DNA of 64,000 bases from assembly GCA_002269645.1 (NCBI GenBank), contig NIVC01000176.1, positions 1 to 64,000 on the forward strand, read 5' to 3'. Both the position numbers and the translations under genes were made by a program. How positions within the stretch are numbered: position 1 is the stretch's first letter; each line of letters opens with the position of its first letter. Positions 1 to 17,226 of the stretch are shown one piece after another. A model generated the notes under the pieces. That model was given only the letters and a program-made list of their open reading frames with translations. It searched no databases and was not told the DNA's origin. This stretch comes from Macrostomum lignano. Lineage: Eukaryota.

Positions 1-1
1 A

Positions 2-1152
2 ATTGATTGGACTGCTTACTATCATGACAAAAGCTATAGAGATGCTGAAAAGACGTCTTCAACTCCAGAGGAAGCCCTAGCAAAGAAGCATTATTGCTGA
101 TGAAAAAATGATAGCTGATTTAGATGCTATTCCAACCAGCGACTTGTCGGTAAAGGAGAGACTCATTAGAAATCTAGTAAAGCGTATTATCAATGCTAAA
201 GTTCGGTTTGGATTAGGAATTCATACTCACAACCCCAACAATTGTATAGACTGTCTAACAATTTATGGTAAGGGTCTTAGCTATGAAGATGCAGTAAAAT
301 TGCATAGGGAATACAGAAAGCCAAGAGTATTTAGAAAAATGATTCACTATGCAAAAGACACAATTTGGCATGCAGATATCATTATCCTACCGCCCGAAAG
401 AGGTTACAAATATGCTCTCACTATCATAGATGGTTTTACACGTTACGCCTGGGCAGTTCCTTTGAAAACAAAGACGGGAGCGGAAGTTGCAGAAGCTTTC
501 CAAAAAGTATTTAAGGAATCAGGAAGACGATCAGAGAGACTTTGTGTAGATGAAGGCAAGGAGTTTTATAATCAGCATATGTACAAGCTATACTCGTTTT
601 CAAAAGACAACATTAGAAAGAAGGATGAAAGGGGTGAATATATTAACAAGATGTTTCAATTTATGGCGAGTCAAGAATGCAATGATTGAGAGGTTCAATC
701 GTACTCTCACAAATAAACTCTGGTTTGAATTTGATCTACAGGGTAATCAGAAGTGGCTCCACACATTGCCAGCTATTGTTGAAAAATACAACAACACAAT
801 CCATTCTGAGATTCTGATAACTCCTTCAGAAGCATCTAAACATCCTGAGCGAGTACCAAAGCCAACTTTCGAGTATTCAAATGAGAAACCAAACTTCAAA
901 GTAGGTGACAAAGTTCATATCTATAGATATAAGGAGCACTTTGAAAAGGGTCGAAGAGGATATTGGAAAATTTCAGAAGTGTTTAGGATAAAGAAAATAG
1001 TTTACTCCAATCCCATAACCTACATTATTGAGGATGAGAATGGAGAAGAAATCATTGGATCATTTTACAAATCCCAGCTTCTACCAGCAAATTTTTCAAC
1101 TAAAAATGAGCGCCTATCGAACAAACTGCAAACGGGCGAAAGGTCAGATTGA
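2..1152 (+). CDS. PLA2-like domain in frame with retroviral-type (rve) integrase; 5'-partial, frameshifted near 91 and 650-675
   Basis: Frame from nt 2 reads IDWTAYYHDKSY (HDxxY PLA2 motif); after a 1-nt shift near 91 it continues ADEKM...NAKVRFGLG. Integrase triad follows: WHADII (D), CVDEGKEF (D), MIERFNRTL (E), then the Maverick-type tail PITYIIEDENGEEIIGSFYKSQL. Joins track ORFs 108..689 and 550..1152. Confidence 0.88.
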
Positions 1153-1528
1153 AACGTCTGATTCACAACTACTAGCTGATAAAGAGGGTGAAGGAATTGG
1201 TGATATGATCAGTGGTGTCACAAACTTTTTATCAAATCATGGAAGTAAAATTGTGAGTGGAGCTGATGCAATAGGTAAAACAGCTACCACAGCGAAGAAC
1301 ATATTCGATGCGAAGAAATCATACAGTGACATGTCTAAAGCAGGTGAGGAACTGGAATATATTAAAAAGAAACGTAGAGATAAAGAAGCAAAGAAAAGAA
1401 TGGAAGAAGAGCAACAGATAGCTTCTCAATCAAATAAGGCTATTCAAGATATTGTTAAAAAGGCTCTAGGAACAGCAGAACAGTCTCAAGTGTCTTTGAG
1501 ACAAGGCAATGGTTTGAAGAAATTCTGA
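1106..1528 (+). CDS. Small putative virion core/membrane-lytic protein (amphipathic helix after GEG site)
   Basis: ATG at 1106 in the TAAAAATG context shared by neighbouring genes. KEGEG is followed by IGDMISGVTNFLSNHGSKIV, a charged coiled coil and RQGNG. Confidence 0.7.
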   Translation: MSAYRTNCKRAKGQIETSDSQLLADKEGEGIGDMISGVTNFLSNHGSKIVSGADAIGKTATTAKNIFDAKKSYSDMSKAGEELEYIKKKRRDKEAKKRMEEEQQIASQSNKAIQDIVKKALGTAEQSQVSLRQGNGLKKF

Positions 1529-1536
1529 CCTTAAAA

Positions 1537-1965
1537 ATGAGCGAGAAAAACACTGAAGCAAGACTCAATCGATATGTTCGAGAGGGAAAACCAAGATATG
1601 TTACTGTAAATAAGCAAAAGCAATATCTTTCTAAAGAGAAGATTCGAGAATTGCAAGAGAAACAGAAAGAACATGAAGGTGGAATAATTCCTCTATTAGG
1701 CTTACTACCAGCAATATTGGGTGGTATCGGAGCAGCCTCCGGAGTTGGTACAATGATTGCAAAAAGTGTTAATACAGCCAACAATGCTAAGCATAATAAG
1801 ACAATAGAAAGCATTGAACGACAAAAACTAGAAGAGTTGAAAAAGGCTCAAGGGAGTGGAGTGTTAGTTGATGCGGCTAAAAGAGTCGAACAAGTACCCA
1901 GCGAAGCAGTCAAGTGGCTGCTAAAGACTTTAAAGTTGAAAAGGAGAAACAGGGTAATGGGATAA
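1537..1965 (+). CDS. Basic core protein precursor with adenovirus pX(mu)-like hydrophobic segment
   Basis: 142 aa, TAAAAATG start, basic N-terminus, then GGIIPLLGLLPAILGGIGAASGVG and AQGSG. Confidence 0.72.
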   Translation: MSEKNTEARLNRYVREGKPRYVTVNKQKQYLSKEKIRELQEKQKEHEGGIIPLLGLLPAILGGIGAASGVGTMIAKSVNTANNAKHNKTIESIERQKLEELKKAQGSGVLVDAAKRVEQVPSEAVKWLLKTLKLKRRNRVMG

Positions 1966-2008
1966 TTCTTAGACCTCACGAAGCTTAGTTGAAATTTCTC
2001 GTATAAAA

Positions 2009-3370
2009 ATGGAGAACAAAAAGGATATACTGAACCTATATGAGGACAAAACTTTTAGCTTTTTCAAAAAGAAAGAAGACTATATTAAGATTTCTCCAAC
2101 ACCAGTAGCACTAATAATCTCAATGTTGCAGGAGGTCAAATAGTTCATGAAGTCAATTCAACAGAGTCATACATTCTCATGTCAGAGGCATTCGGTTGTA
2201 TAAAATACTCAATAACACAACGAGATAACACCGACTTGAATACGAACATTACTCTAGAACATAATTGGCCTATGAGACTTTTCTCTCAACTCATAGTTGA
2301 CATTGGAGGAACAAAGAAAGTCTATAATGATCCTGGAGAGTATGACACAATCTTAAAGTCCGTAATGTACTCAAAATTGATGAATGAAGTTGGAGAAGCA
2401 TACGGATGGATTCCAGACACTGGAGATGCTGGGACTGTTTCTGATATAGCTCTAGCAAACAACGCAGATGCTGAAGCTGTGAGAACTGCAGCAATCGCTA
2501 TGAAAAATAGACTCAATAAGAAGGATTCGAATACTGGATACATTAGGAGGCTTGAAAATTATAACAATGTCACTAATGCTCCAAACAGAGGTGGAACAAT
2601 CAAACTATCATTAACACCCCTCATTGGGTTCCTTGATTGGCAGAAGATTAGCAAAGGAATTAAATATAAATTCACATGGACAAGAAAGACTAACGATGCT
2701 GAAATTTTCTTTGGAGCTGCCGGGACGGAAGCTAAGTTAACTATTAATAGCTTTGAGATTTGGATCCCTGCTATTACTTTGTCACCCAGTGCTGAAGCAG
2801 CTTTTCTAAAATCACTCAACAAGGACATTACAGTATCATTTCCAGAGAGGGTAACGGTTCCGCCACAACTCATTCAAGGAAGTCCATATACATGGAACAT
2901 AGCCAACATCTCCAATATGCCACTTGCAATCTTTGTAGCTTTCAAATATGACGTAAACAACCCATCATATATAGTTAATGATCACAAGTATGTGTCTTAC
3001 AAAACTGGAGCAAATGCAGTGAAAATAACCCAGCTTCAAGTCAGATTAAATCAGGTGATGTATCCGAATGATTATGTTGAAATTGATCCAGTAGCTCAAG
3101 ACATTCACAGAGCATATGAAATGTACGGACATCTGCAGCCGTTTCGGTGTAACTCCACCATTTAATAAACAAGACTTTCTAACCATCTATCCAATCTTTT
3201 GCTTTGATCTAACAGCTCAGGATGAGTTTCTTGTCAAGAGTGGAGTGAATATTCAATTATTTATCAAGAAGTCAACTAATGTTGAGCTGACTGCTTTTGC
3301 ACTAATTCTTGAACAAACAAAGAATGTAATAAAAGTTACCAGTGAATATCAAATGACCCGCGTCGAATAA
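2009..3370 (+). CDS. Major capsid protein (double jelly-roll, Polinton type); two frameshifts near 2105 and 3126
   Basis: Starts at TAAAAATG (2009, MENKKDILNLYED). One added G gives ISPTPGSTNNLNVAGGQ, joining ORF 2179..3165; a second shift joins 3116..3370 with the Polinton MCP C-terminal motif YPIFCFDL. Reconstructed length about 450 aa; lies next to the ATPase. Confidence 0.85.
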
Positions 3371-3391
3371 GGTCATTTTTTCTTTTTTTAA

Positions 3392-4165
3392 ATGCCCAAA
3401 GTAAAATTTCAGCATGATCCTATTTTCCCTAATCCTCTTTTATGTTGTATTATCGGCGCTACAAATACGGGTAAAACATATTTACTATTCCATATTCTTA
3501 CAAGTCCTGAAAAACTAGTTGACTTTAATGAGTTAGTTTTATATGTTCCCAGAGCATCTCAAATGGATCCAGAGTATCAGTTTCTAAAATATGGCTTTGA
3601 AAATGGTCTCCCACCTTCTCTTATCAACTCACTCTATCATGTCTACCAGGTGAGTGAGGATGCATCTCCTGAAGATATTAGACATATTTGTCGAGAGGCA
3701 GCCAACCCTGGTCGAGTGCAAAGCACATCAGAAAATTCAGAAGTAATAGAGAAAATTCCTGTCACTCTTTCCCATACTCCAAATGAAGAAATTTTTCATA
3801 ATGGACTAAAGACATGTGTGATATTGGACGATGTTTTGGGAGAGGCTAATCAAACATTTCAGGAAAGTCTGTTTCAGAGAGGCAGGCATGGAAACTGTTG
3901 TGGTTTTTATCTAGCTCAAAATTTTACCAAACTAGATCGCAATACTGTCAGGGAGAATACGACATGTTACATAATCTTTAAACAAAAAGATACAAACTTA
4001 AATCACATTGCTAGAAATATAGAAACGAATTATGAACCCGCTATATTCAAGGCTAAATGTAGAGAGGCTTGGAAAAAGAAGTATGGCTATATCTATATAA
4101 ATACAAGAGCTGATGAGGATGAGCAAGATTTGTATAAGGATGTTCTAACTAAAATCCCATTGTAA
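3392..4165 (+). CDS. A32-like genome packaging ATPase
   Basis: Walker A GATNTGKT, Walker B CVILDD, and RGRHGN...AQNF...RNTVREN typical of the FtsK/A32 family; intact 257 aa. Confidence 0.93.
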   Translation: MPKVKFQHDPIFPNPLLCCIIGATNTGKTYLLFHILTSPEKLVDFNELVLYVPRASQMDPEYQFLKYGFENGLPPSLINSLYHVYQVSEDASPEDIRHICREAANPGRVQSTSENSEVIEKIPVTLSHTPNEEIFHNGLKTCVILDDVLGEANQTFQESLFQRGRHGNCCGFYLAQNFTKLDRNTVRENTTCYIIFKQKDTNLNHIARNIETNYEPAIFKAKCREAWKKKYGYIYINTRADEDEQDLYKDVLTKIPL

Positions 4166-4167
4166 AA

Positions 4168-4899
4168 ATGACTAATGAATATATAAGAGAACTCATTAAT
4201 TTAGCAAAGCAGCGAGAAATGTACAAATCCAGAAATGATGCTCAACGCTATTTGAAAATTGGAGAAGAGAGTTTATATGCAAGAGTGGCTCCATTAGCTC
4301 AAAAACCTGTCACAGAAAAGCTCGATGAATTTATTGATGTCAATGCCAACCTTGTTGATAAACTTCAGAATCAAAAAGTTCCAGTTCCGCAATCAAGTAC
4401 ACCAAAAGGCCGATTTGAACCCCTAGAAGTATTTGACAAAATAATTGAAGAAATTGGAAAGATTCCAATAACTCAAAGACCAGCGCCTAGTATACGGATT
4501 CAAAAAACTGATGCTGGATATATATTTGGATCATCTGTAATAGATGTTGAATTCCATGAACAAGGTCGAGACATCATTGTCAACGAATTTCGAATGCCAT
4601 TTTCTGAAGATCTTGAAGAGTTGTTCAAAATGCCTAAAGTAACTGAAAATGGTGAAGAGCTGAAGCAATTCAAGATGCAAACATTGCAGGATTATGTTAA
4701 CATCATTGAACATTGTAAAAATCCAGCGGCCAAATCAAGTGGGAATTATAAGCAAGCAGTAAGGATATTGAAAGATAATCCACCAGGATATCGAGTAAAA
4801 CCGGGATCTGGACTCAGTGAAAGAGTGTTAACTTTATTAGCCGCCAAGGCAGAAGGACATAATAATGTTGATAAAGAGCTAGCAGAATTACTTGCTTAA
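4168..4899 (+). CDS. Conserved Polinton-type hypothetical (putative core) protein
   Basis: 243 aa, TAAAAATG start. N-terminal helix with QKPVTEKL; C-terminal GSGLSERVLTLLAAKAEGHN resembles the RLxLLxAxxxAGN helix I recall from Maverick ORFs. Confidence 0.65.
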   Translation: MTNEYIRELINLAKQREMYKSRNDAQRYLKIGEESLYARVAPLAQKPVTEKLDEFIDVNANLVDKLQNQKVPVPQSSTPKGRFEPLEVFDKIIEEIGKIPITQRPAPSIRIQKTDAGYIFGSSVIDVEFHEQGRDIIVNEFRMPFSEDLEELFKMPKVTENGEELKQFKMQTLQDYVNIIEHCKNPAAKSSGNYKQAVRILKDNPPGYRVKPGSGLSERVLTLLAAKAEGHNNVDKELAELLA

Positions 4900-4901
4900 A
4901 A

Positions 4902-5697
4902 ATGGAAAAAGAAATAGAAAAAGTCAACATCCTCTTGAGTAAAAAGTTTCAACGCACATTTGACTTCTTTTCAATTAAAAACCCATTTCGACAAACTCTA
5001 GGCACTCCTATAAATTTGTATGAAGATCGAGAATACGAAGCTGGTATAAAAAAGTTTGCAGTCTTTGATGCTATTAACAATATTGAAGGAGGCAATAATG
5101 AGTTGCGATACTCGAGGGATAGTGGTAGAACATGGAAAAAAATAAAGATTCAAGCGGGATCTTGGGAAGTTAAAAGTCTGTCAAGCGAGATTCAAAGATT
5201 GCTAACAGCTGCAAATGATTGGAAAGAGGGGGCTATTGTTTTCAGTGCAAGCCTAGACACGCGTAGAGTTGAGTTACGGTTAGCCACAGATTATCAAGTT
5301 GATTTCAGGGATGCACATTCCAATAACTTTAGAAGACTGTTGGGATTCAATTCGGAAGTGTATTTGAAACCATTTGAGAGAGCTCCAAATCCAGCTCGGA
5401 TAGACGGAGCTAGAAGTGCGATCATGGTTCGTTGTCTAAATATCAAAGGGGGTTTATCACTGATCCAGCTAATGGAAATCATTTAATTGATAAGCAAATA
5501 CTTCTTTCAATTCCATCGTTCTCTGTCCCAATGGGAAGTAAAATTATTCAAGAGCCGCAAATCCTGTGTACCTACCACTAACTACAAACATGTTGAGCAC
5601 ATTCGACTTTGTCATCGAAGATGAGTCTGGTGTTCTATACGACTTTGATGGCGAGGAAATATTTATAAATCTCACATACGACAAATATGAGTGTTAA
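4902..5697 (+). CDS. Minor capsid (penton, single jelly-roll) protein; frameshifts near 5452 and 5560
   Basis: ORF 4902..5486 (IKIQAGSWEV, RRLLGFN, AIMVRC). Two +1 corrections continue it as GGFITD...EPQNPVYLPL...IEDESGVLYDFDGEEIFINL to TAA at 5695-5697, matching the Polinton minor capsid C-terminus. Confidence 0.82.
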
Positions 5698-5699
5698 AA

Positions 5700-6131
5700 A
5701 TGAGCGAAGCTGAGACATGGAATGCATTTAAACAAAAGTTTGGGACTGACACTACGACTAATATTGATCTGATAAATTGGGCAAAATATCTCAAGTTAAA
5801 ACCATTTCGCTATGCCATGAGAGATGAAATTGTTGATTTACCACAGTATGGTTACTTTATGACAAATATTCACACTTCGAAAGAACGGGGTATACATCAT
5901 TCAGCTATATTTTCAGCTCCTGATAAGGTTTATTTTTTTGATTCCTATGCACTACCGCCCACACTGGAAATTATGGAAAAGTTTAATCACACAAAGAATA
6001 GAATATGTGGAGACATGGAAGAACAAATTCAAACTTTTGATAAGAAATATTGTGGTCAAATGTCGCTGTACTTTTTACACCGAATCGATAAAGGAGATAG
6101 CTATAACGAAATTTTGCAGCAATTAAAATGA
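5700..6131 (+). CDS. Adenain-like (Ulp1 fold) cysteine maturation protease
   Basis: Catalytic His (RGIHHSA), Asp (YFFDSYALPP) and Gln/Cys (QIQTFDKKYCGQMSLYFL) in the expected order. The ATG at 5700 (TAAAAATG) is preferred over the GTG at 5691. Confidence 0.92.
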   Translation: MSEAETWNAFKQKFGTDTTTNIDLINWAKYLKLKPFRYAMRDEIVDLPQYGYFMTNIHTSKERGIHHSAIFSAPDKVYFFDSYALPPTLEIMEKFNHTKNRICGDMEEQIQTFDKKYCGQMSLYFLHRIDKGDSYNEILQQLK

Positions 6132-7535
6132 GTTACAAGAATACTGCCAATCAATTTGGTTACTCGTCAAATTCAAATGATATAGCACCTGGAATAACAA
6201 TAGCGTTAGCTGATGATCGCTACATCAATGAAAATGAAGGATATAAGAGAGAGGAAATAGATAATTTATTGTTAGCAAAGAGAAATGTTTCAGACTCTTA
6301 TTCAAAGGAAGATAGTGACGCAATGAATATCACCATGCTACAATTAATTGACGATGCTCATGGGCGCGTAAACAATGTCTACACAAAAACCGAAACTGAC
6401 ACTAAGATGTATTCTAAAACTGAGATTGACACTAAGATGTATTCTAAAACTGAGATTGACACTAAGATGTATTCTAAAACTGAGATTGACACTTTGTTAG
6501 CAGAATGGCAAGGTACTGCGGGAGGTACAGAGAGTTCGAAATTAGTCAATATTCTTTCATTACTGACTTCAAACGCTTCCCATTCTGACATGAAAGTGAC
6601 CGCTTCTCATAACTCTTCAGCAGCATATCATGTTGCAGATTCAAACCCAGCTTCAGATTGGAGCAGTGCAGATGACTCAGACAAGTGGATACGATTTCAA
6701 TTTTTGAAAAGAGCTAGGAAAGTTGTAGAGATAAAGTTGGAAGGAGAGGTGTGGCCTGGTTGGTCTGTTAGTGTGAGCCTAAATGGAACAAACTGGACAC
6801 CTGTTGAACAAAGTGCACCCATTGAACTACGAAGGGCAATGCACATCTTAGGAAAAAAATACCCAATCCCTCATATTATTTCCATTATTTCTTAATTTTT
6901 CTGGTTCCGTAAAGCTTACAAAAGTTGAATTACTTGAGAGACAAACAGTGGTTAATGATTTAGTGTGGCCTATAGATAGACTTCAAGCTGTACCAAAGCT
7001 ATACGTAGACAATGCACTTGAATCAGTGGAGCTGCGACTAAGGCGGGGACTAGGTTTCAAATCTTATACAGGATATATTCCCTCACTAGCAACACGTCAA
7101 AACTATAGAGAAAGGGGTTTCAATGTAGCGTCATCAGGAGCATTTGAAACGTCAGATAATTGGGGTTATATAGTATCTAATTCAGAATGGGCATCGAGGA
7201 ATGAACCCAATTCTTACATTGAAGTACAACTTCCCGAGTCTATTCAAATTTGGAAATTCGGATTGAAAGGAACCAAAGCAGTAGGTAGTGAAATTATAAA
7301 AAATCAACCAAAAAGTTTTATTCTGAAAGGGAGCAATAACAAGAGAGACTTTAGGAATATTTTTTCTACCGAAAACGCTGGTTTAGTTCCTGGAGTCATG
7401 AAATATTTTGAAGTAGCTTCCACCGAAAAATTCTCTGTTTATAGAGTGCATATTAATTCAGCCACTGAAGGATCAACCGTTCTTATTGTTTCAGGCTTTC
7501 AACTTTATCCGATTTTAGACATAATCGCCACATAA
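6128..7535 (+). CDS. Putative fibre/receptor-binding protein with YSKTEID repeats and two discoidin (F5/8 type C)-like domains; frameshifted at 6825-6895
   Basis: Contains 10-aa repeats MYSKTEIDTK, discoidin-like motifs (SDWSS...WIRFQF...WSVSVSLNGTNWT; EWAS...YIEVQLPE...PKSFILKGSNN...FSVYRVHI) and a KLYVD fibre motif. Two +1 corrections join ORFs 6128..6895 and 6948..7535. Confidence 0.72.
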
Positions 7536-7537
7536 AA

Positions 7538-8278
7538 ATGAATGAAAAAAATGAACACATCTATCCTGTGGTTGAGCTGCATGAAGCAGATTTGAGGGAG
7601 CGGGACTATTTCAATCAGAGAAAGGGTGAAATCAAAGGCAGTATTGAATGCATTACTAAAGATCTTACAATTTATAGCAAAAAGGTAAAAAAGTACAAAC
7701 GGCAAAGTAGCAGGATAAATTGGATCAACATTGTGACAGGAAATGTAAGTCTCTTGGCTGCTACAGGAATTGGCATAGCAACATCGATACTGACATTGAA
7801 TCCCTTAGTTATTGGAGTAGTAATCGGGGCAATGAGTGGTTTTGAAGCTGTAAAATCCACGTCGTTGTTTGCAACTGTGAAAATTCATTGCCAAAAGCAG
7901 AAGGCAAAATACATTGTTCTCAGAGATCTGGCAAATCAATATAGAGAGAGATTGTATATTTACTCCCAAAAAGCAGTTGATGATTATAGATTAACTCTTG
8001 AAGAGGTTCAAGCAGCTGCTGCAATTTATTCAGAATACAGAGAAAAAAGAGATCAATTGTTAGACGCCTGTGTTGCGCCTGAAGAAGTTAACCATTCGGA
8101 AGTCGTTGATAAAATCCTCAAAGAGAGTAGACTTGGTCATTCAGCGAAGGAAAAAATTAAAAAGGAATTACTAGAAAAAGATCTGAGAGAAAAATTGGGT
8201 CTAGCTGATAAGCCAAAAGAGTACTCGGCAACACTCAATCTTCAATCAAATGCTCCAAGTGCACCTCCCTACAATTAA
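7538..8278 (+). CDS. Viral protein with hydrophobic helical hairpin and C-terminal PSAP motif
   Basis: 246 aa, TAAAAATG start; about 50-aa hydrophobic Gly/Ala-rich stretch between coiled coils; ends APSAPPYN. Confidence 0.75.
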   Translation: MNEKNEHIYPVVELHEADLRERDYFNQRKGEIKGSIECITKDLTIYSKKVKKYKRQSSRINWINIVTGNVSLLAATGIGIATSILTLNPLVIGVVIGAMSGFEAVKSTSLFATVKIHCQKQKAKYIVLRDLANQYRERLYIYSQKAVDDYRLTLEEVQAAAAIYSEYREKRDQLLDACVAPEEVNHSEVVDKILKESRLGHSAKEKIKKELLEKDLREKLGLADKPKEYSATLNLQSNAPSAPPYN

Positions 8279-8303
8279 TATTGTATAATTTTTTTTCTAG
8301 AAA

Positions 8304-8609
8304 ATGGCTGCAATAAAAGTTCTCCTAAATGCATACCAAGATGAAATAAAGCGCATTGATAGAGAAATACAAATAAATAACTTTAGGGAGGTGCGTACAC
8401 ATTGTGGAATAATAGAACCGGATTATGGATATATTGATAAATTAAGTGATCGCAAATGTTTTCTTGAAACTGCTATTGTTTTTGCAGAAGCATTTATTGA
8501 AGATGAAATCGACAAGTTAGTTAAAAAAATAAAAGAGATCAGGAAGTATGTTGAGTTTAATGATCAGCGCAAGAAACTTCTTAAGCAATTGAATTGTTTG
8601 GTTTTTTAA
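8304..8609 (+). CDS. Small helical hypothetical viral protein
   Basis: 101-aa ORF with AAAATG start, converging tail-to-tail with PolB (2-nt gap). Confidence 0.55.
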   Translation: MAAIKVLLNAYQDEIKRIDREIQINNFREVRTHCGIIEPDYGYIDKLSDRKCFLETAIVFAEAFIEDEIDKLVKKIKEIRKYVEFNDQRKKLLKQLNCLVF

Positions 8610-8611
8610 AC

Positions 8612-11600
8612 TTATTTGAATCCATGAGGATGTGTTATAATTCCATTGGATTCAATGTATCTTTTGTCATCGAAAGGACTAATAGCCTTCTTATTTTGTT
8701 CTATTAAAGTCATGTTATGCTTGTCTGATCTAAGGCTATACACTTTCCTATAGACTGGTTCGTTATAATCAAGTAGTATATTTCTATAGTCATCATATTG
8801 TACATGATGCTTCACTGTTGACTTTGAGATTCCCTTTAATTTTTTCTCTTCCTTCCCTTCCTTTTGAGTGCTGACATAAACTGTTTTAAATGAATATGCT
8901 TTCGATCTTAGAGCGGTTACTTCTGTCATTATGCAATCATATTTTGCCAATTCATCCTTGAATGTTCCCAGCTTTCCACAATTATTCATATCATGTAAAT
9001 CAATCGGAAAATTTTTAGTATACAGCGACAAATCGAAATGCTCCTTCATCTGAGCAATGTCTTTATAAATATTTTCTGTCTTTATATGAAGAATGAATGA
9101 GTCGGTGTCAGAGGTAACAATCTCAACATTATCCCCCCATTTGGACTTGAAAACTTTGTAAAATGTTTCATACATATGCAATTTCGAGAGATCCAGAATT
9201 GCTTGTCCAGCGTATGTTGGCTTTGTTCCAAGAGGGATATTCTTAGGTCGCTGGTGAATGCAAATTAGATTTTCATTGAAGATTTTGAAGTCTATGAAAT
9301 CTGGCTTGGATATTATCTTAGATATCTCATCCTCACTTGTCAGCAACTCAAATCGCTTTCTCTTTTTAACATCCTCCATTGTCTTGCCAAAGATGCTTAC
9401 ATTAAGCATTTTGAACTGATTGTCTTCGAACTCAATTTTTGCTTCTTTTGCCTTCTTTCTTTCTATCGTATTAAACTCGATATACTCCTTTAACCATGGC
9501 TTTTCATTGAATGAAATCGTCCTATGTACTTTTGTCACTTTCAAGCCCATCTCTTCATAGAATCGCAATAGCTTATGATGTACGATATATTTTGTTTTAT
9601 TTTTTAAATTAAGGATCAATTTAGGAACTTTTCCAATCTTTTTCATTTCGACTTCTAGACATCCTTTCTGATATTCACTCAATTCACTTTCTGACACAGT
9701 TGTACTTTCAGGTGCTAATGGGAAGGCATACGTTTTCTTTTTTGATTCTTTTGTATATTCAAGATCACATTCAACAAGACAGCCCCGTCCTTCAGGAGGA
9801 TTTTTATAATAGTTGGAATCAGCTTCCCATTTAAAGTCAGAAAAAGGAAGGGGTTCCAACATACTATAACCATAGAGATTTGTACAATCAACGTAAAGTA
9901 AGTAGGAAGTTGGTTTTTCTAAATCATAGCCTGGAAGATAAGGATTATTTGCCTTTACATATCGTGACCCTAGAACTCCGCTAAATCCACCTCTTATTCC
10001 ACTATCAATCATATGAATCATATCGATATCCGCCAGCAAGTCTAACTCAACTTTACTTTTCTTCAACCCAGCATTCCAACTCAATCCTGGTGCTGAGAAG
10101 CATCTGGCTGGATCAATCTCAAAGTGTTTCAGGAAGAATGTTCTATAGCGTTCGAATACATCTGCTAATAATAGAACGTCAACCTTAAGATACAGCATCA
10201 TATAATCCTCCAAATTCTTACAATTAAAAGTTTTCCACATTTGTTTTGCAAAATCATATTCATCTGAAGAAATGTCTTCACCTTTCAACCTCGAGTAAAA
10301 CTCTTTCAATGGTGGTAACTCAGTTTCTGCTAATCTTCCAAAGCTTCTGATATACTCATATGGGAATACACCCTTGCGCTTAACATATTGAAAATCGCTG
10401 TCGTTTTTAAAGTATTTCTTTGTTATGATGAAGTCTTCATCCTTCAGGGACTTTGCGCAGATATCCAGCGAGGAAGCCAAGAACCTGTATGAATCTAGGA
10501 ACCTCAGTACTACTTTGTTACATCCAAACTCGAGAGAAATGTACTCTTCAGAAGTTTTAGATAGTGGAGGAAATAATTTATCCTCCATGGTCTCTTTGCT
10601 CTTTAAGTGTGTCACTAAGAAGTGAAAGTCATAGTGGGATCCATTCTGGAAGTAGATTGGGATTACTCGCTTCTTACTCTCGAGAGCATTGCAGGATTTA
10701 CAGGCAGCCCCTCTATATTTGCCACTATAGTGACAATGTTCTCTTACCTTACCTAGCTTAAGTGTAAAGTCATTTTTACAATTCGCACATTTTTCAGCCC
10801 TGTAAAACTCTTTCCATTGTTGCTTTGTGATCTTATATTTACTTATATTATTGCTCTTGTTCAGACATTTTTTGCACCAAGATTCTATAGTAACTTTACT
10901 GTCAATTTCCTTCACATGCACCTTCATATCTGGAACCATATCAAACTCCTCGCATATGTAGCATTGTTTAGCCTTACAGTAAGAAGCCTCCTCTTGCGCT
11001 GTCAAATTATGATTAATATGCTTAGGCTCCTTCAGACCATTCTTAATTTGTTGATAAATTTCAACCATTCTATCAACATATTTTTCCTTGGCATCTGTGC
11101 CACAATATCCTTCATACTTCGATTTAATTACCTCGGGTAACTCAGAATGGATATAAAAACCGTAAGCTATTGCGTTCTGATTTGCTACTTTTAGAGTATA
11201 TGACTCTTTGTCTAAAATCTTAGTGAAGCTTTTACTTTGTGCTTCAATGGGTTCAGTTGTTGCTTCAAAGTCAGCATAGATAGCGATGGGTAGCTTTAGT
11301 TTGAATATATGATTCTTAAATTTCAGCTTCGATTCTTCCTTAGGTAATTTATAAAGACCGGGTGCATTTTTACCGCACAACCTTGAGTGCTCGGCCAACA
11401 CGTTTTCACTTGTGTAAACAGTCATGCATGTTCTGCATAAAAATGACTTGTGATTTACACGCTTTCCAGTTTGTTTTGAAACTAATGTTGTAAGATTTTT
11501 TATCAGACAATAATGAGTCTTACCATCTTCCTCCAGGTATAGTAAATCTACTACATAAGTTCGTTGATTATGAGGTGAGACATAGAGATGTTGTAGTGTA

Positions 11601-12436
11601 TCTGGGAATTTACCTTCATAATACAGCACATTAACAGCAAACTCTTCATTTAGTCTTTCAAACTTTTTTATATCTTTTATTCTCATGGGGAATTGGATAT
11701 CGGTGAGATTAAGTTCTTTTTCATATGGTTTATATTTTGACACTCGATAACCATCTTTATTTTGTGGATGTTTAACAGCTAATACACACCAGAGGAAGCA
11801 TTTCTCATCATCATTCTGAATGTTAAGAATTGATCGACATTTTTTAATTTCATTGTTAGTAAAGAAGGATCCTCCCTGAATGCTAGAAACCTTGGCAACT
11901 CTGATGTAGATAGATTTTATCTGCACAAAGACATTATCTGATCCCTTCTCACAGAACTCATCAATGAACTTTTCCAATGTCTCCTGTCTTTCGCTAAGGG
12001 CAGTGTCATACTGTGAATCTGACTGAATATTGTAGAATCCACTTTCATTGTCATAGACTGTGAATGGAGGAATGTCTTCGTTAAAATTCTTTTTGAATTC
12101 TAGTTCAAAATGCAAGTTGAACTTACTCCGTCCACCATCTCTAACTTTCTCTAACACTGCTTTAATTGCATCTTCATACTGAATAAAAACCTTTGTTATA
12201 TAACCTTCATTAACATTCCTAATGACATACTCTGAAATTTCTGACTTCTTATTATACTTCTCTCTAAAGGATTTATGTAGTATTATTTCATCACCAATCT
12301 GCGGAGCTGCCACTTCATCTTCTTTGGACTCCGCTATAGGCTCATTATCTGTGTGCTTTTGCTGCTGACGCCGAAACCGCTCAGCTTGAATGTATTGTTC
12401 AAATTCTTCATCACTCATCTTTCTGAGTTGTTCCAT
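8612..12436 (-). CDS. pPolB: Protein-primed family B DNA polymerase with N-terminal terminal-protein/vOTU region
   Basis: Intact 1274 aa. ExoI IYADFE, ExoII FQNGSHYDFHFL, ExoIII YLKVDVLLLADVF; polymerase motifs YVDCTNLYG, KMLNVSIFGK, TSDTDSF; endonuclease VII-like Zn insert (EHCHYSGKYRGAACKSCN). Confidence 0.97.
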   Translation of the reverse strand: MEQLRKMSDEEFEQYIQAERFRRQQQKHTDNEPIAESKEDEVAAPQIGDEIILHKSFREKYNKKSEISEYVIRNVNEGYITKVFIQYEDAIKAVLEKVRDGGRSKFNLHFELEFKKNFNEDIPPFTVYDNESGFYNIQSDSQYDTALSERQETLEKFIDEFCEKGSDNVFVQIKSIYIRVAKVSSIQGGSFFTNNEIKKCRSILNIQNDDEKCFLWCVLAVKHPQNKDGYRVSKYKPYEKELNLTDIQFPMRIKDIKKFERLNEEFAVNVLYYEGKFPDTLQHLYVSPHNQRTYVVDLLYLEEDGKTHYCLIKNLTTLVSKQTGKRVNHKSFLCRTCMTVYTSENVLAEHSRLCGKNAPGLYKLPKEESKLKFKNHIFKLKLPIAIYADFEATTEPIEAQSKSFTKILDKESYTLKVANQNAIAYGFYIHSELPEVIKSKYEGYCGTDAKEKYVDRMVEIYQQIKNGLKEPKHINHNLTAQEEASYCKAKQCYICEEFDMVPDMKVHVKEIDSKVTIESWCKKCLNKSNNISKYKITKQQWKEFYRAEKCANCKNDFTLKLGKVREHCHYSGKYRGAACKSCNALESKKRVIPIYFQNGSHYDFHFLVTHLKSKETMEDKLFPPLSKTSEEYISLEFGCNKVVLRFLDSYRFLASSLDICAKSLKDEDFIITKKYFKNDSDFQYVKRKGVFPYEYIRSFGRLAETELPPLKEFYSRLKGEDISSDEYDFAKQMWKTFNCKNLEDYMMLYLKVDVLLLADVFERYRTFFLKHFEIDPARCFSAPGLSWNAGLKKSKVELDLLADIDMIHMIDSGIRGGFSGVLGSRYVKANNPYLPGYDLEKPTSYLLYVDCTNLYGYSMLEPLPFSDFKWEADSNYYKNPPEGRGCLVECDLEYTKESKKKTYAFPLAPESTTVSESELSEYQKGCLEVEMKKIGKVPKLILNLKNKTKYIVHHKLLRFYEEMGLKVTKVHRTISFNEKPWLKEYIEFNTIERKKAKEAKIEFEDNQFKMLNVSIFGKTMEDVKKRKRFELLTSEDEISKIISKPDFIDFKIFNENLICIHQRPKNIPLGTKPTYAGQAILDLSKLHMYETFYKVFKSKWGDNVEIVTSDTDSFILHIKTENIYKDIAQMKEHFDLSLYTKNFPIDLHDMNNCGKLGTFKDELAKYDCIMTEVTALRSKAYSFKTVYVSTQKEGKEEKKLKGISKSTVKHHVQYDDYRNILLDYNEPVYRKVYSLRSDKHNMTLIEQNKKAISPFDDKRYIESNGIITHPHGFK

Positions 12437-12545
12437 TTTTTATAAAATAAATTTAGCAGGAAAATTATGTAATGACGTTATAAATTTATTGTGGCATCCA
12501 CAGGATTAAGCAATTAGAAATGTATAAGCGATATTACAATAGGCA

Positions 12546-12771
12546 GAAAAAGAACCAGATACTGCAGTATTCGATGTGAAAAAGCAACGAGCAAAAAAGA
12601 ACCAGATACTGCAGTATTCGATGTGAAAAAGCAACGAGCAAAAAAGAACCAGATACTGCAGTATTCGATGTGAAAAAGCAACGAGCAAAAAAGAACCAGA
12701 TACTGCAGTATTCGATGTGAAAAAGCAACGAGCAAAAAAGAACCAGATACTGCAGTATTCGATGTGAAAAA
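12546..12771. repeat. Five near-perfect 47-bp tandem repeats, each with a 12-bp palindrome ATACTGCAGTAT
   Basis: Palindromes start at 12559, 12606, 12653, 12700 and 12747; the array lies just upstream of the PolB start. Confidence 0.95.
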
Positions 12772-12832
12772 GAATAGTCAGCATAATGAGAGTCAGATGT
12801 TATGATTCACAACGCGCGCAATAAGATTTTCA

Positions 12833-13468
12833 TCAGATCAGAAGTGCATCTTCCTCCTCTTCCTCCAGCATCTCCAGGGCTTTCTCAGCGTACTTGATTA
12901 TAGAACGTAGGCGAAACAGTGAGATGCCACAACGCCACAGAATTGGATGTGCTGTGCTTAGACGAGCCACTCGGACTAAATAGTTCCCCCACGCGGACTT
13001 AAAGCGTAGTCTAGACAAAAATACTTTATACTCCTCGTCACTCAATGAAAGCTTCATTCTTATTAATATCTGACCAGACTTAATTCCATACTGCAAGCCC
13101 CGGCACTGTAGCTCGTTTATCATTTTATCAATGGAATTAAGTTCTGTAATTGCATCCTGAAATTGATACTCTCCGTCCATAAATTCATTAATCTCTCCCG
13201 GCTCTTGATGCTCCATCGAATCCCGCAGTATTTTAGCAGCTTCTGCTATTCGTTCCTTTGTCTTGTCCACTCTCTCCAATCTACCTCGAAAAGTTGGAAT
13301 AGCAAACTTCTTCCTATTAAATTTTCTAGCAACCTTGTTATATTCTCCTATCCATTTCTTACAATGCTTTAAATCCCCACTACAAAAAATCTCCTTGATA
13401 AGACTATCGAGGTCGGATTCGAATGATGCCATTGCTGCCTCCATACGGGATTCTAAAATGTAGGGCAT
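12833..13468 (-). CDS. Viral hypothetical protein, possible DUF3102-like helical DNA-binding domain
   Basis: 211 aa with viral base composition; segment GQILIRMKLSLSDEEYKVFLSRLRFKSAWGNYLVRVARL; acidic tail. Confidence 0.6.
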   Translation of the reverse strand: MPYILESRMEAAMASFESDLDSLIKEIFCSGDLKHCKKWIGEYNKVARKFNRKKFAIPTFRGRLERVDKTKERIAEAAKILRDSMEHQEPGEINEFMDGEYQFQDAITELNSIDKMINELQCRGLQYGIKSGQILIRMKLSLSDEEYKVFLSRLRFKSAWGNYLVRVARLSTAHPILWRCGISLFRLRSIIKYAEKALEMLEEEEEDALLI

Positions 13469-14181
13469 TATAACTATTTAGTATCAAAATCAACACAAGA
13501 ACAAAACTCTTATTTCTTACCTTTTCGTTGTTGCTGAGTTGTGTGATTTATATGTTCACTCTGTTTGCTTTAGTCTGTCTGATAAACGTGTGTTGTATTG
13601 CTTCCAAAACTAAAGCGGGTTTTTATCAAGCCACCTAAGCGACTTCTTACATGCGCACTGAGTCATGAAAATAGAAAAAAAACCAGCATGGCCGCTGCTT
13701 TAGAGTTATGGTTTATGAGGTGCTCAATTCCTGCTGCAGCATGCTGATATTCGAAACCTATTGATAAAGGAACAATAAATTCATGTTGACTCAACTGCTA
13801 AACTGTTAGGGTTAGGTAAGTTGCTTTGCTTCATTCTTGATGCGAAAAGCTAGAAAGAATGTTGAGTCATTCTGCTTTAAAGAAAAAAGGAACATAGTTT
13901 CTTTCAGTGTGCATTGTGCAGTGCGATGCCATGCATCTCAAGTAACTACAATTCTGACTCATGTGGATAGAATTTTTTCTGCATCTGGCATGAGCCTGCA
14001 AAGTTGCATTCCATTCACCCGGTGTCGCTTTCTCATTGGTTGTCATCAATGAGACACCAATGAGAATTGAGGTTATGCGCTGCTTTTGTATTTTCACATA
14101 ATATTAATACAGGAATGAATTTGGAAAGATGGCTGATAATTCTCTCCAAATTCATTGCAACAATAAAAAGCTTTAATAGAC

Positions 14182-14745
14182 ATGCCATCCCAAAAGGAAC
14201 TTCGCAAGAGATATAGGGATCATCGAAAGGAATTCGAACTCACAAAGCAAAAGATTCGAAGGCTCATGCCATTAACTATATTTGCAGATCTAGGTTCTGA
14301 GAGACTAATCAATAAGCTACAAGGTTTAGATACATTCAAGTCCTTTACGGAGGAGGATAAGCTCCTGAAGCTTCTGAAGGAAAATGTGGCAAAAAGAAAA
14401 AGCATGCAAGCTATTGCACTATCCTATCAAAACCAAGCTCAAGCCATGCAAGCGATTGGTGATTTGGATACTGAAGATGATAGCCTTCCACCACCCTATG
14501 AGATCGCTGCTGACAACCGAGGCACTGCTGACATCCAAGGCACTGCTGACATCCAAGGCGCTGCTGACAACCGAGGCACTGCTGACATCCAAGGCGCTGC
14601 TGACAACCGAGGCACTGCTGACATCCAAGGCACTGCTGACAACCGAGGCACTGCTGACATCCAAGGCACTGCTGACAACCGAGGCACTGCTGACATCCAA
14701 GGCACTGCTGACAACCGAGGCACTGCTGCTTCATCAGCTAACTAA
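14182..14745 (+). CDS. Viral hypothetical protein with PPPY motif and 6-aa repeat tail
   Basis: 187 aa; coiled-coil N-terminus, LPPPYE, then about 12 in-frame 18-bp units encoding AD(NR/IQ)G(T/A) at 14506-14725. Confidence 0.62.
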   Translation: MPSQKELRKRYRDHRKEFELTKQKIRRLMPLTIFADLGSERLINKLQGLDTFKSFTEEDKLLKLLKENVAKRKSMQAIALSYQNQAQAMQAIGDLDTEDDSLPPPYEIAADNRGTADIQGTADIQGAADNRGTADIQGAADNRGTADIQGTADNRGTADIQGTADNRGTADIQGTADNRGTAASSAN

Positions 14746-15060
14746 AACTAGATGATTGATGACTTGTGGCGATCATGGACTAATTTGTCAATATTAATAA
14801 ATTGCTCTAATGTTTTAATTTTGTTCTTCATAGGCGTTTGAGGACTTTTTGTTACTGTTTTAATAATCACTACTTTAATATTTAAAATACAAAACCATTA
14901 TTATTATTTGCATAAGTTATGCGAAGTGTATCCTAAAAACGGATTTTAAGGAGCTGTTATCTTTTTTAATTTTTTATAATTAATTTTCATTATAGCAATT
15001 TTGATTTACGTGAATTAGATTTAACTTTGTGTAATGGAAGCTGTCCTTGACCAATTTTTA

Positions 15061-15829
15061 GAGTTCCTGCGAGAGCCTATTTGACCATACGCTTCACTCA
15101 GTGTGGGTTTCGCACGACGTTAAAGCTGAGTCACAATATAAAAATTGCTTTGAGGAGAATTTCTCCTGCTATTTGTTCCATTTTTAAGATACATAATTTA
15201 GAAAAGGGTTAGTGAAATCGTCCGTAGGTAGGGTCGCGAGAGCATTGTTCGTTTGTAACTTGCGTGGCCCACTTCATGTCTTTTTTTACAGCTAGATAGA
15301 GGGTGAACACAAAAGATTTGCACGAGCCACTCCTATTGGATGCCAAAACCAAACACTTTTTGGCAGAAATTTTGGCAAAAATTTTGGTTTTGGCAGAAAT
15401 TTTGGCAGCCAATAGAAATGTTCAGTGCTGCGGTTATGTATAGTTAGTTTGGTGAGTTCCTGCGAGAGCCTATTTGACCATACGCTTCACTCAGTGTGGG
15501 TTTCGCACGACGTTAAAGCTGAGTCACAATATAAAAATTGCTTTGAGGAGAATTTCTCCTGCTATTTGTTCCATTTTTAAGATACATAATTTAGAAAAGG
15601 GTTAGTGAAATCGTCCGTAGGTAGGGTCGCGAGAGCATTGTTCGTTTGTAACTTGCGTGGCCCACTTCATGTCTTTTTTTACAGCTAGATAGAGGGTGAA
15701 CACAAAAGATTTGCACGAGCCACTCCTATTGGATGCCAAAACCAAACACTTTTTGGCAGAAATTTTGGCAAAAATTTTGGTTTTGGCAGAAATTTTGGCA
15801 GCCAATAGAAATGTTGAGTGCTGCGGTTA
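15061..15829. repeat. Two near-identical direct repeats of about 376 bp (period 393 bp)
   Basis: Copies at 15061-15436 and 15454-15829; the identical spurious ORFs 15209..15412 and 15602..15805 confirm the 393-bp offset. Confidence 0.93.
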
Positions 15830-16348
15830 GTGCTCTAGTAGTCGAGTATGCATGCCACGAAAAATTTAAATTAGCGCTCCATGTTCTTGAATGTCTTCTA
15901 TTATCTTTAAGTACAAATCTAGAACAGCATTAAAGCCATTTCAAAGCCTCGGGACAAAGCGAATGTGCAGGAGCAAATTATTGACTTTTGTAAAAGCATT
16001 GTATGCCTCGAGTGGACAATTTTTATGCATAGATGGTAGCTGACTGATCGTTAAAAGCAAAGCTAGTAAGATTGGCTTATTGAAGGGCGTTATGCAATGG
16101 GAGAAAAGACTATTATTAAATTTGATGCTAGTTTTGAAATGATGAAACCTGAAAATAGGTTATTTTAACCCACGAATCAAAAATTTCTTGTGGTTTTACT
16201 CACGAAATCGCGCAAAAAGCAATTTTTCGAAACTTTTGAAAAATCACTAAAATCACTGTTTTCAGACAATTTTCACCTGTTTTTAGTCGATTTTTATCTG
16301 TTTTTTGTGATTTTTCAAAATGGGTTGCGCTCAAACCTACTTTTCCTA

Positions 16349-16570
16349 TACTACTTCCCACAAATATCCCAAAATGCCATTGAAATCCCACAAATATCCC
16401 AAAATCCCATTAAAATCCCACAAATATCCCAAAATGCCATTGAAATCCCACAAATATCCCAAAATCCCATTAAAATCCCACAAATATCCCAAAATGCCAT
16501 TGAAATCCCACAAATATCCCAAAATGCCATTGAAATCCCGCAAATATCCCAAATTGCCATTGAAATCCTA
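16349..16570. repeat. 30-bp intronic minisatellite
   Basis: About 7 copies of cacaaatatcccaaaatgccattgaaatcc. Confidence 0.9.
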
Positions 16571-16588
16571 CAAAAAAAACTGACTCAC

Positions 16589-17101
16589 CAAGTTGACAAT
16601 CATATCCCACTGGCCGCCATCTTCAGCCGGATTGTGCAGCAGATGCTGCCACAGCCGGCCCTCGAGCGGCTCGCCCCGCATAGCGCAATCCAGATAGCAG
16701 TGCAGGAAGTAGTAGCCCCTCTCCAGCTTGTCCCAGAAGAACAGGTGACTCTGCGACAGCTCCAGCTCGGCCAGTCCCAGCTGCTTGGCCAGCGGGATTC
16801 GAACCAGATTCAAAGCGGCGAACAGCCAGCAGCGCCCGCTGCGCTTCTGATCGGTGACCGGCTTGATTTCGGCGGCGCTGTAGGCGAAGGCGCTGGTGCT
16901 GCTGAGCTGGTCAACCAGCCGACGGTCCAGAGCTACGTCGAACAGCTTATGCCGCTGGGTGGCCAGCTCGGACAGTTGCAGCTGACCGCTGGCCGAGAAT
17001 TGCGACTCCAGCTGGGCCAGCAGGTGGTTGGGAATGCCGGAGCATGATGGAGCGGCGTTTGACGACATGCTGTTGATTAGACTGTTGCTAGGGCAGCTCA
17101 T
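16589..17101 (-). CDS. BLMH: Bleomycin hydrolase (peptidase C1B), first coding exon
   Basis: VTDQKRSGRCWLFAALN (catalytic Cys), LSQSHLFFWDKLER, EDGGQWDMIVNL; donor TTG|GTGAGT at 16588. No downstream exon recognised in the window. Confidence 0.92.
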
Positions 17102-17226
17102 GAAGGTGAAGCGTAGCTTAACTTCAAGGCTTTGTATTTATACTTGGCGTTGTACTTTAGAACTCCAAAAATCTATCTCTGTATCTGTCCATGATTTCTA
17201 AAGTCCATTTCAAAACAATGGTATGA

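Follow-up and report, generated by a model that had tools for sequence, protein, structure and literature searches.

In retroviruses, the integrase is made as the C-terminal part of the Gag-Pro-Pol precursor, is packaged via a virion protein, and is freed by the viral protease; retroviral -1 frameshifting relies on a slippery heptamer and a downstream structure. The adenovirus protease, adenain, follows the consensus (M/I/L)xGx|G (below, the P4 rule) and requires DNA or a peptide cofactor (works cited in PMC6048507).

According to the main text of the adintovirus paper (Starrett et al., 2021, PMC8502044), PLA2X, a phospholipase A2 (PLA2) with a C-terminal pX-like domain, is a gene of its own. 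PLA2 is likewise a separate gene in the accessible text of PMC5803895, PMC3671162, and PMC11296320; the first of these describes the CAP protein of a Spodoptera Maverick, a parvovirus-like PLA2 whose residues for catalysis and calcium binding are conserved, in an ORF separate from the integrase, unlike the gene described here (Geisler, 2018, PMC5803895). A role of PLA2 in endosomal escape has been proposed (PMC8502044, PMC4642659, available text). In mavirus, as given in the text available, cleavage by the viral protease takes place at GG|X and GX|G (GY|G), and both the integrase MV02 and the lipase MV13, the latter as two pieces around a probable GK|G, are present in virions (Born et al., 2018, PMC6048507). 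For adintoviruses, -1 frameshifts have been proposed for Penton and Hexon-Adenain (Buck et al., 2024, 10.1101/2024.03.25.586562, available text). No Polinton virions have been observed, as stated in the introduction of a 2026 preprint (10.64898/2026.06.19.733378).

The window analyzed here comprises 64,000 nucleotides of the Macrostomum lignano genome (764 Mb), namely the first 64 kb of a contig, so that contig base 1 is window base 1. A Polinton/Maverick occupies positions 1-16356 and the window opens inside it; because the window starts at contig base 1, the left terminal repeat and the first ~68 codons of the PLA2-integrase gene are missing. As expected of a Polinton/Maverick, the element has long terminal inverted repeats starting with AGT (AGTAGT/ACTACT), the right repeat giving a 99.5% inverted match over 955 bp to the left end (AGTAGT start) of the sister copy L003; a family B polymerase (motifs by eye) plus an integrase (rve) like that of retroviruses; and a DJR capsid protein (PF21738), an A32 ATPase (PF04665), and a clan CE protease (protease profile). 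Its features are as follows.

2..97, plus strand: PLA2 active-site helix with YHDKSY at 20-37, in a frame other than that of 81-689; the gene start lies beyond the contig end
81..689, plus strand: open frame with the C-terminal half of PLA2, the linker, and the N-terminal half of the integrase with two catalytic Asp
198..218, plus strand: KVRFGLG, corresponding to K-x-K-(L/F)-G-x-G, which ends the last PLA2 helix; main candidate protease site
222..254, plus strand: clade-specific linker insert, H-x-H-x4-C-x2-C (pLDDT under 50 at residues 140-159)
261..275, plus strand: IYGKG, a second, clade-specific G-x-G, in 29 of 30 copies
550..1152, plus strand: C-terminal half of the integrase in another frame, with the catalytic Glu in IERFN at 685 and a C-terminal beta domain
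1019..1528, plus strand: small basic ORF with two G-x-G-hydrophobic motifs (1187, 1505), a putative core protein
1459..1965, plus strand: small ORF with GG|II and G-x-G motifs (1678, 1720, 1852)
2089..3370, plus strand: DJR capsid protein (PF21738, E 3e-10)
3392..4165, plus strand: A32-type packaging ATPase (PF04665, E 7e-6)
4153..4899, plus strand: conserved Polinton ORF with KPGS|GL near the C-terminus
5700..6131, plus strand: adenain/Ulp1-type (clan CE) cysteine protease, with H66, D81, Q111, and C118 present
8612..12439, minus strand: family B DNA polymerase of 1275 aa (motifs by eye) with an endonuclease VII-like insert (PF02945, E 1e-7)
15061..16356, no strand assigned: right terminal inverted repeat (15402-16356) with an internal duplicate (15061-15436), ending in ACTACT

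The endonuclease insert is the sole Pfam match listed for the polymerase ORF, and ORF 1459..1965 resembles, by eye, the C-terminal part of stand-alone PLA2X proteins. The element also contains a fiber-like ORF (6107-7535), divided between two frames in this copy, which carries TEID-type repeats as well as two F5/8 type C (discoidin) domains; an ORF with a weak SLATT match (7469-8278, E 0.03); tandem repeats of ~47-nt units before the polymerase start (12560-12770); and 18/36-nt coding tandem repeats (14510-14730) within ORF 14167-14745. About 200 nt past the right end, at 16568-17137 on the minus strand, lies a host exon that, by its motif, resembles bleomycin hydrolase. A search of the phage collection gave no match.

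The preliminary description of this locus had reported a PLA2 joined in one frame to the integrase, and the frame at 81-689 bears this out. It is stop-free; runs through ADEKM (96-110), KVRFGLG (198-218), HTHNPNNCIDC (222-254), and IYGKG (261-275) into the integrase part with LHREYRKP (300-323), WHADI (366-380), and VDEGKE (546-563); and matches Pfam rve (E 1.7e-10). Frame breaks near 90 and near 660 put the YHDKSY helix and the catalytic-Glu half of the integrase (550-1152) outside this frame; the window copy is decayed and hence cannot itself make the protein. Sister copies were compared for the best 30 of 40 scored, out of 214 candidates. In all 30 best-scoring copies fetched, ADEKM, GLG, and LHxEYRKP lie in one frame; 20 are open through the integrase end, and 8 have an unbroken ATG-to-stop gene of 452 aa with the PLA2 and DDE residues intact. 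The junction is also covered by contigs of four public runs, with flat cover, no joint, and no insertion or deletion listed; these contigs bear neither way on expression or splicing. Hence, from GLG to the integrase there is neither a stop nor a frame change in 30 of 30 copies and four runs, and these, together with 79 homologues of the same architecture, rule out an assembly artefact or a chance arrangement. In two sister copies the gene start is replaced, by a Prim-Pol-like ORF (L023:519-1220) or by a PiggyBac-type transposase fragment (L030:1-699).

In the unbroken natural gene, PF08398 is matched at residues 34-110 (E 1.3e-8) and PF00665 at 186-262 (E 7e-10). The PLA2 is indeed of the parvovirus type: its profile matches AAV VP1 (E 1.5e-6, in an alignment that stops short of the last PLA2 helix and thus of the G-x-G position), and G44-P45 of the calcium loop (GPG), the catalytic pair H77-D78, Y81, and the second Asp, D102, are present. 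Single-sequence PDB searches with the PLA2 part and with the protease gave nothing significant, the matches coming from profiles. The AlphaFold model, based on a 79-row alignment, has two folded units, with pLDDT under 50 at residues 1-16 and 140-159; the helical PLA2 ends at residue 138, and the integrase matches foamy virus intasomes. In the integrase we detected no HHCC domain and no chromodomain (PF00385 at E up to 1); a chromodomain is present in a minority of the fused homologues. The PLA2X arrangement, i.e., PLA2 and then a pX-like C-terminal domain in one ORF, is absent here, as the integrase follows PLA2 and the GG|II-type, pX-like segment forms the separate ORF 1459-1965. Between the junction and the integrase start there is no Met; the first is that of MIHY, after LHREYRKP.

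Compared with the adintoviruses (Alpha, Mayetiola-class), the element shares pPolB, the rve integrase, adenain, ATPase, DJR capsid protein, terminal repeats, and a parvovirus-type PLA2 with a proposed entry role; unlike them, it has PLA2 joined to the integrase and the pX-like ORF separate, and, unlike in the adintovirus definition, its integrase has no typical C-terminal chromodomain (PMC8502044, main text). That main text contains none of the words "fused," "fusion," and "cleavage"; its gene maps are figures, where a drawn fused gene could be missed. The clan CE protease is homologous to that of mavirus; unlike here, MV02 and MV13 (an alpha/beta hydrolase) are separate genes with no joint precursor in the available description (PMC6048507). 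Slippery-site fusions, putatively present among relatives of the window gene (below), are also what Buck et al. proposed in the same element group, but PLA2-integrase and protease-integrase are not mentioned in the accessible part of that work (10.1101/2024.03.25.586562). The likeness to retroviral Gag-Pro-Pol consists of the C-terminal position of the integrase in the putative precursor, the -1 slippery heptamer plus structure in relatives, and the foamy virus intasome fold; unlike retroviruses, this is a DNA virus-like element with a cysteine, not an aspartic, protease and no detected HHCC domain, in which the integrase is joined to an entry enzyme or to the protease. Within the literature that could be searched (no subscription papers, Repbase or GenBank entries, or figures, and few supplements), we found no precursor that links the integrase to PLA2 or to the protease. 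Each component is known, as is the cleavage chemistry; what appears new is the way they are arranged and the recurrence of that arrangement.

The fusion is not peculiar to this element. PLA2 is N-terminal to the integrase, and always first, in 79 of the 120 homologues listed (409 matches), and a second Polinton family of the same genome, at ~55-60% identity, is fused too (L091, 423 aa). One automatic JGI label names both domains for one protein (P0091). In a 50%-identity library, the single-sequence test found 16 of 116 anchored matches fused; unfused integrases are hence still the majority. Across the 79 aligned rows, H77 and D102 of PLA2 and D194, D252, and E299 of the integrase are invariant, and D78 is kept in 78. 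Close copies show purifying selection on both halves (pN/pS 0.13-0.25 for PLA2 and 0.08-0.14 for the integrase), with the exception of one near-identical pair, whose PLA2 has three nonsynonymous and no synonymous changes. On a FastTree tree of 176 integrase cores (one third of the near matches kept), the fused label is clustered yet spread across several clades, requiring 25 changes vs. 39 when shuffled; many deep nodes of this tree are weak, and its "unfused" rows include fragments. A second PLA2 gene is absent from all 12 fused loci considered, and a free protease gene is present at nine, the other three being 2-7 kb fragments.

The alignment of 79 rows (the query, 66 near matches, and 12 representatives, chosen for two-domain coverage) shows strong conservation at the junction: K135 in 78 of 79 rows, G139 in 79, and G141 in 74, with position 140 variable. 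The preliminary description had stressed IYGK|G, the columns of which are mostly gaps (G158 in 3 of 79 rows, 56 gaps); therefore, the main candidate site is RFGL|G, and IYGK|G, part of a linker insert that most homologues lack, was rejected in this role. Its G-x-G is kept in the clade with the His/Cys insert (family 2, P0002, P0004, P0005, and P0014). IYGK|G fits the adenovirus P4 rule and RFGL|G falls outside it; the rule is not needed, since GG|X and GX|G are cleaved by the protease of mavirus. The disordered N-terminus, too, has a conserved Gly-Gly motif (of 69 ungapped rows, 66 have Gly10 and 50 have Gly11).

G-x-G is found at the junction of 103 out of 119 PLA2-integrase proteins vs. 13 out of 143 other integrases; 12 of these 13 are listed, six of them being N-truncated fusions and four showing the integrase's own N-terminal motif. 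The chance rate is 18 in 63,270 integrase-core residues, i.e., ~1% per 40 aa. The G-x-G/GG-hydrophobic motifs of the window are concentrated in its small core-type ORFs; none occurs in the window's MCP, ATPase, and protease, and one occurs in the 1275-aa polymerase. The H-x-H-x4-C-x2-C stretch between both G-x-G sites, which family 2 and four homologues share, is a possible metal-binding peptide; cleavage at both sites would set it free as a peptide of ~19 residues.

The element-encoded protease that had been assigned to 5700..6131 proved to be of the adenain type, its profile matching ASFV S273R (E 6e-10) and adenain (E 3e-4); the window protease alone has no Pfam match. A protease of this type is fused in frame to the integrase in P0107, P0118, P0141, P0168, P0269, L039, L118, L121, L134, and L147, in at least three places on the integrase tree. 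Eight of these ten junctions have G-x-G and the other two GG, with no PLA2 helix there. Four of the six protease-integrase proteins in the junction-motif comparison helped build the profile that detects them, and independent Pfam C5 matches are weak (E 4e-4 to 0.02, three proteins). At L035:340-1371 and L037:468-1502 (minus strand), PLA2X and the protease share one reading frame, possibly a single-copy change, as they are separate in sister loci.

Some relatives have PLA2 and integrase in two frames. In six of nine loci inspected (L110, L115, L116, L124, L159, and L162), the PLA2 ORF stops shortly past the motif and shares 13-55 nt with the integrase ORF, which in every case is in the -1 frame; in 5/5 loci where the first catalytic Asp was located, the integrase frame has no Met ahead of it. 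In four of the six (L110, L116, L124, and L162), an in-frame A-AAA-AAC precedes a hairpin (z -3.0 to -3.6), and two have no canonical slippery site and hairpin. The chance of four or more out of six is 1.4e-4 if the loci are independent; the six are related (48-69% identity), and A-runs also attract assembly errors. L111 is an in-frame fusion with a linker similar to those of L116 and L124, and the linker of the window contains no slippery heptamer. The A-AAA-AAC/hairpin relatives look like cases of programmed -1 frameshifting from PLA2 into the integrase.

What the sequences show is that PLA2 and integrase share one frame, that their catalytic residues are intact and both halves are under purifying selection, that the linker between them is disordered and has G-x-G motifs at its borders, and that the same element has a clan CE protease gene. 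We favor, as the probable reading, a Gag-Pol-like precursor that would bring the integrase into the particle and be cut by the element's own protease. The precursor of 452 aa would consist of a short leader, the parvovirus-type PLA2 (about 12-140), a linker of ~20 residues, and the DDE integrase (about 160-452). The PLA2 part would be a virion protein, through which the precursor would be loaded into the particle; at maturation, the protease would cut GL|G and probably also GK|G and the N-terminal Gly motif; the freed PLA2 would breach the endosome, and the freed integrase would insert the genome in the next cell. Tying the integrase to a virion protein would solve its packaging, as Gag-Pol does in retroviruses, and relatives may reach the same outcome with an integrase fused to the protease or with a -1 ribosomal frameshift from PLA2. 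The polyprotein idea of the preliminary description has thus gained support from the protease-integrase fusions and the -1 frame relatives; its cleavage and co-packaging steps are what we infer.

The two domains may instead stay together, with G-x-G capping the last PLA2 helix and acting as a hinge, and with the PLA2 domain perhaps replacing the N-terminal domain absent from this integrase type. Such a structural role could explain why G139 directly follows the helix ending at 138 and why stand-alone PLA2 proteins end with the same motif, a comparison that rests on loci, since a search with residues 1-160 gave four matches among 32 candidates. Linkers as short as three residues in some homologues and the lack of the second Gly in 16 out of 119 fusions also fit an uncut protein. 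However, the motif (G-x-G or GG) recurs at 10/10 protease-integrase junctions, where the PLA2 helix is absent, which counters a purely structural origin, and at the disordered N-terminus; moreover, G141 is conserved within a disordered stretch, and most close integrase relatives work without PLA2. We consider an uncut protein unlikely.

Cleavage by the element's own protease, which remains probable in our view, also has to be weighed against cleavage of the Gly motifs by the polymerase's vOTU domain or by a deubiquitinase/SENP of the host, which seems quite improbable. An active vOTU protease in Polinton polymerases has been proposed (PMC11161782, available text), and the free protease shows a Trp-to-His change: it has His-His at the active site (window 5894-5899), where Trp is next to the catalytic His in the other five aligned proteases. 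The same His-His in sister L105 makes it a family trait. Yet the protease triad is intact, the protease gene is present at 9 of 12 fused loci, and the motif is of the type that the homologous mavirus protease was shown to cut (PMC6048507, available text). A neutral gene merger, i.e., loss of the stop between neighbors, with the integrase tolerating the extension or restarting internally and co-packaging irrelevant, would agree with the adjacency of PLA2 and integrase in several relatives and with the scatter of the fused label on the tree, the latter arising partly because many unfused rows may be fragments. We hold it to be very improbable, given that no Met is available from the junction to the integrase start, that both halves are under purifying selection, that the fusion recurs in several integrase clades (25 changes vs. 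39 shuffled), and that frameshift signals in split relatives would serve no purpose.

If the Gag-Pol-like reading is true, it would be a DNA-virus parallel to retroviral Pol, frameshifting included. A conserved precursor with a defined candidate cut site would indicate, indirectly, that these elements are made for travel in particle form, and would allow a two-protein in vitro test of protease specificity. We are evenly divided on whether the strategy extends to a whole branch of Polintons, with the integrase as the tail of a precursor behind a virion protein (PLA2 or the maturation protease), made by fusion or -1 frameshift and released by adenain at GX|G; in that case, G-x-G would be a tag predicting virion proteins and cut sites of elements without seen particles.

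In many copies, the PLA2 part of the gene also contains group I introns. In 15 of the 30 closest copies (L014-L022, L024-L029), an intron of 864-891 nt (e.g., L027:547-1426) lies between the G44 and P45 codons of the PLA2 calcium loop, at a site a short way upstream of window base 1; an Rfam scan of window 1-16500 gave no match. Of 20 loci scanned, 15 match RF00028, with 82-91 bits against a cut-off of 50; P1 has U-G at the 5' splice site; and the terminal G is present in 14 of 15 family-1 copies vs. 2 of 8 family-2 copies, the other six ending in A. What looked like a truncated PLA2 in 15 sister copies is thus explained, the N-terminal exon lying ~880 nt upstream, across the intron. Because the intron is inside PLA2 codons, these copies would yield the fusion protein only after splicing. 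The intron holds a PD-(D/E)XK-type ORF (PF09553, E 9e-7; 15 database relatives), likely a homing endonuclease. There are ~28 near-complete intron copies in the genome, and the carrier contig C67 also bears a Wnt gene (the Wnt family has 86 matches in the genome).

According to the accessible text of earlier work, reports of group I introns concern only protist polinton-like viruses (PMC12220804), and intact vertebrate Mavericks are described as intronless (PMC8097293). In the literature within reach of the search, i.e., outside figures, subscription papers, and Repbase, no group I intron in an animal Polinton was described. The introns would place a homing intron, predicted to be self-splicing, in animal nuclear DNA. 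The second family (L090, L092-L094, L096-L099) has at the same site a related intron of 301-333 nt without an ORF (61 bits in L092 in a narrow scan of this one copy, missed by a 9-locus Rfam scan), and most second-family matches start at residue 45. A free-standing HNH-like ORF (by eye) lies just upstream of the gene in this family, which would fit collaborative homing. In a distant element on an IMG/VR contig (L033:3279-3581), a different group I intron (52 bits) occupies the same codon boundary, with a GIY-YIG-like ORF (by eye) upstream; judged from these sequences, the calcium loop of PLA2 appears to be a repeatedly used homing site.
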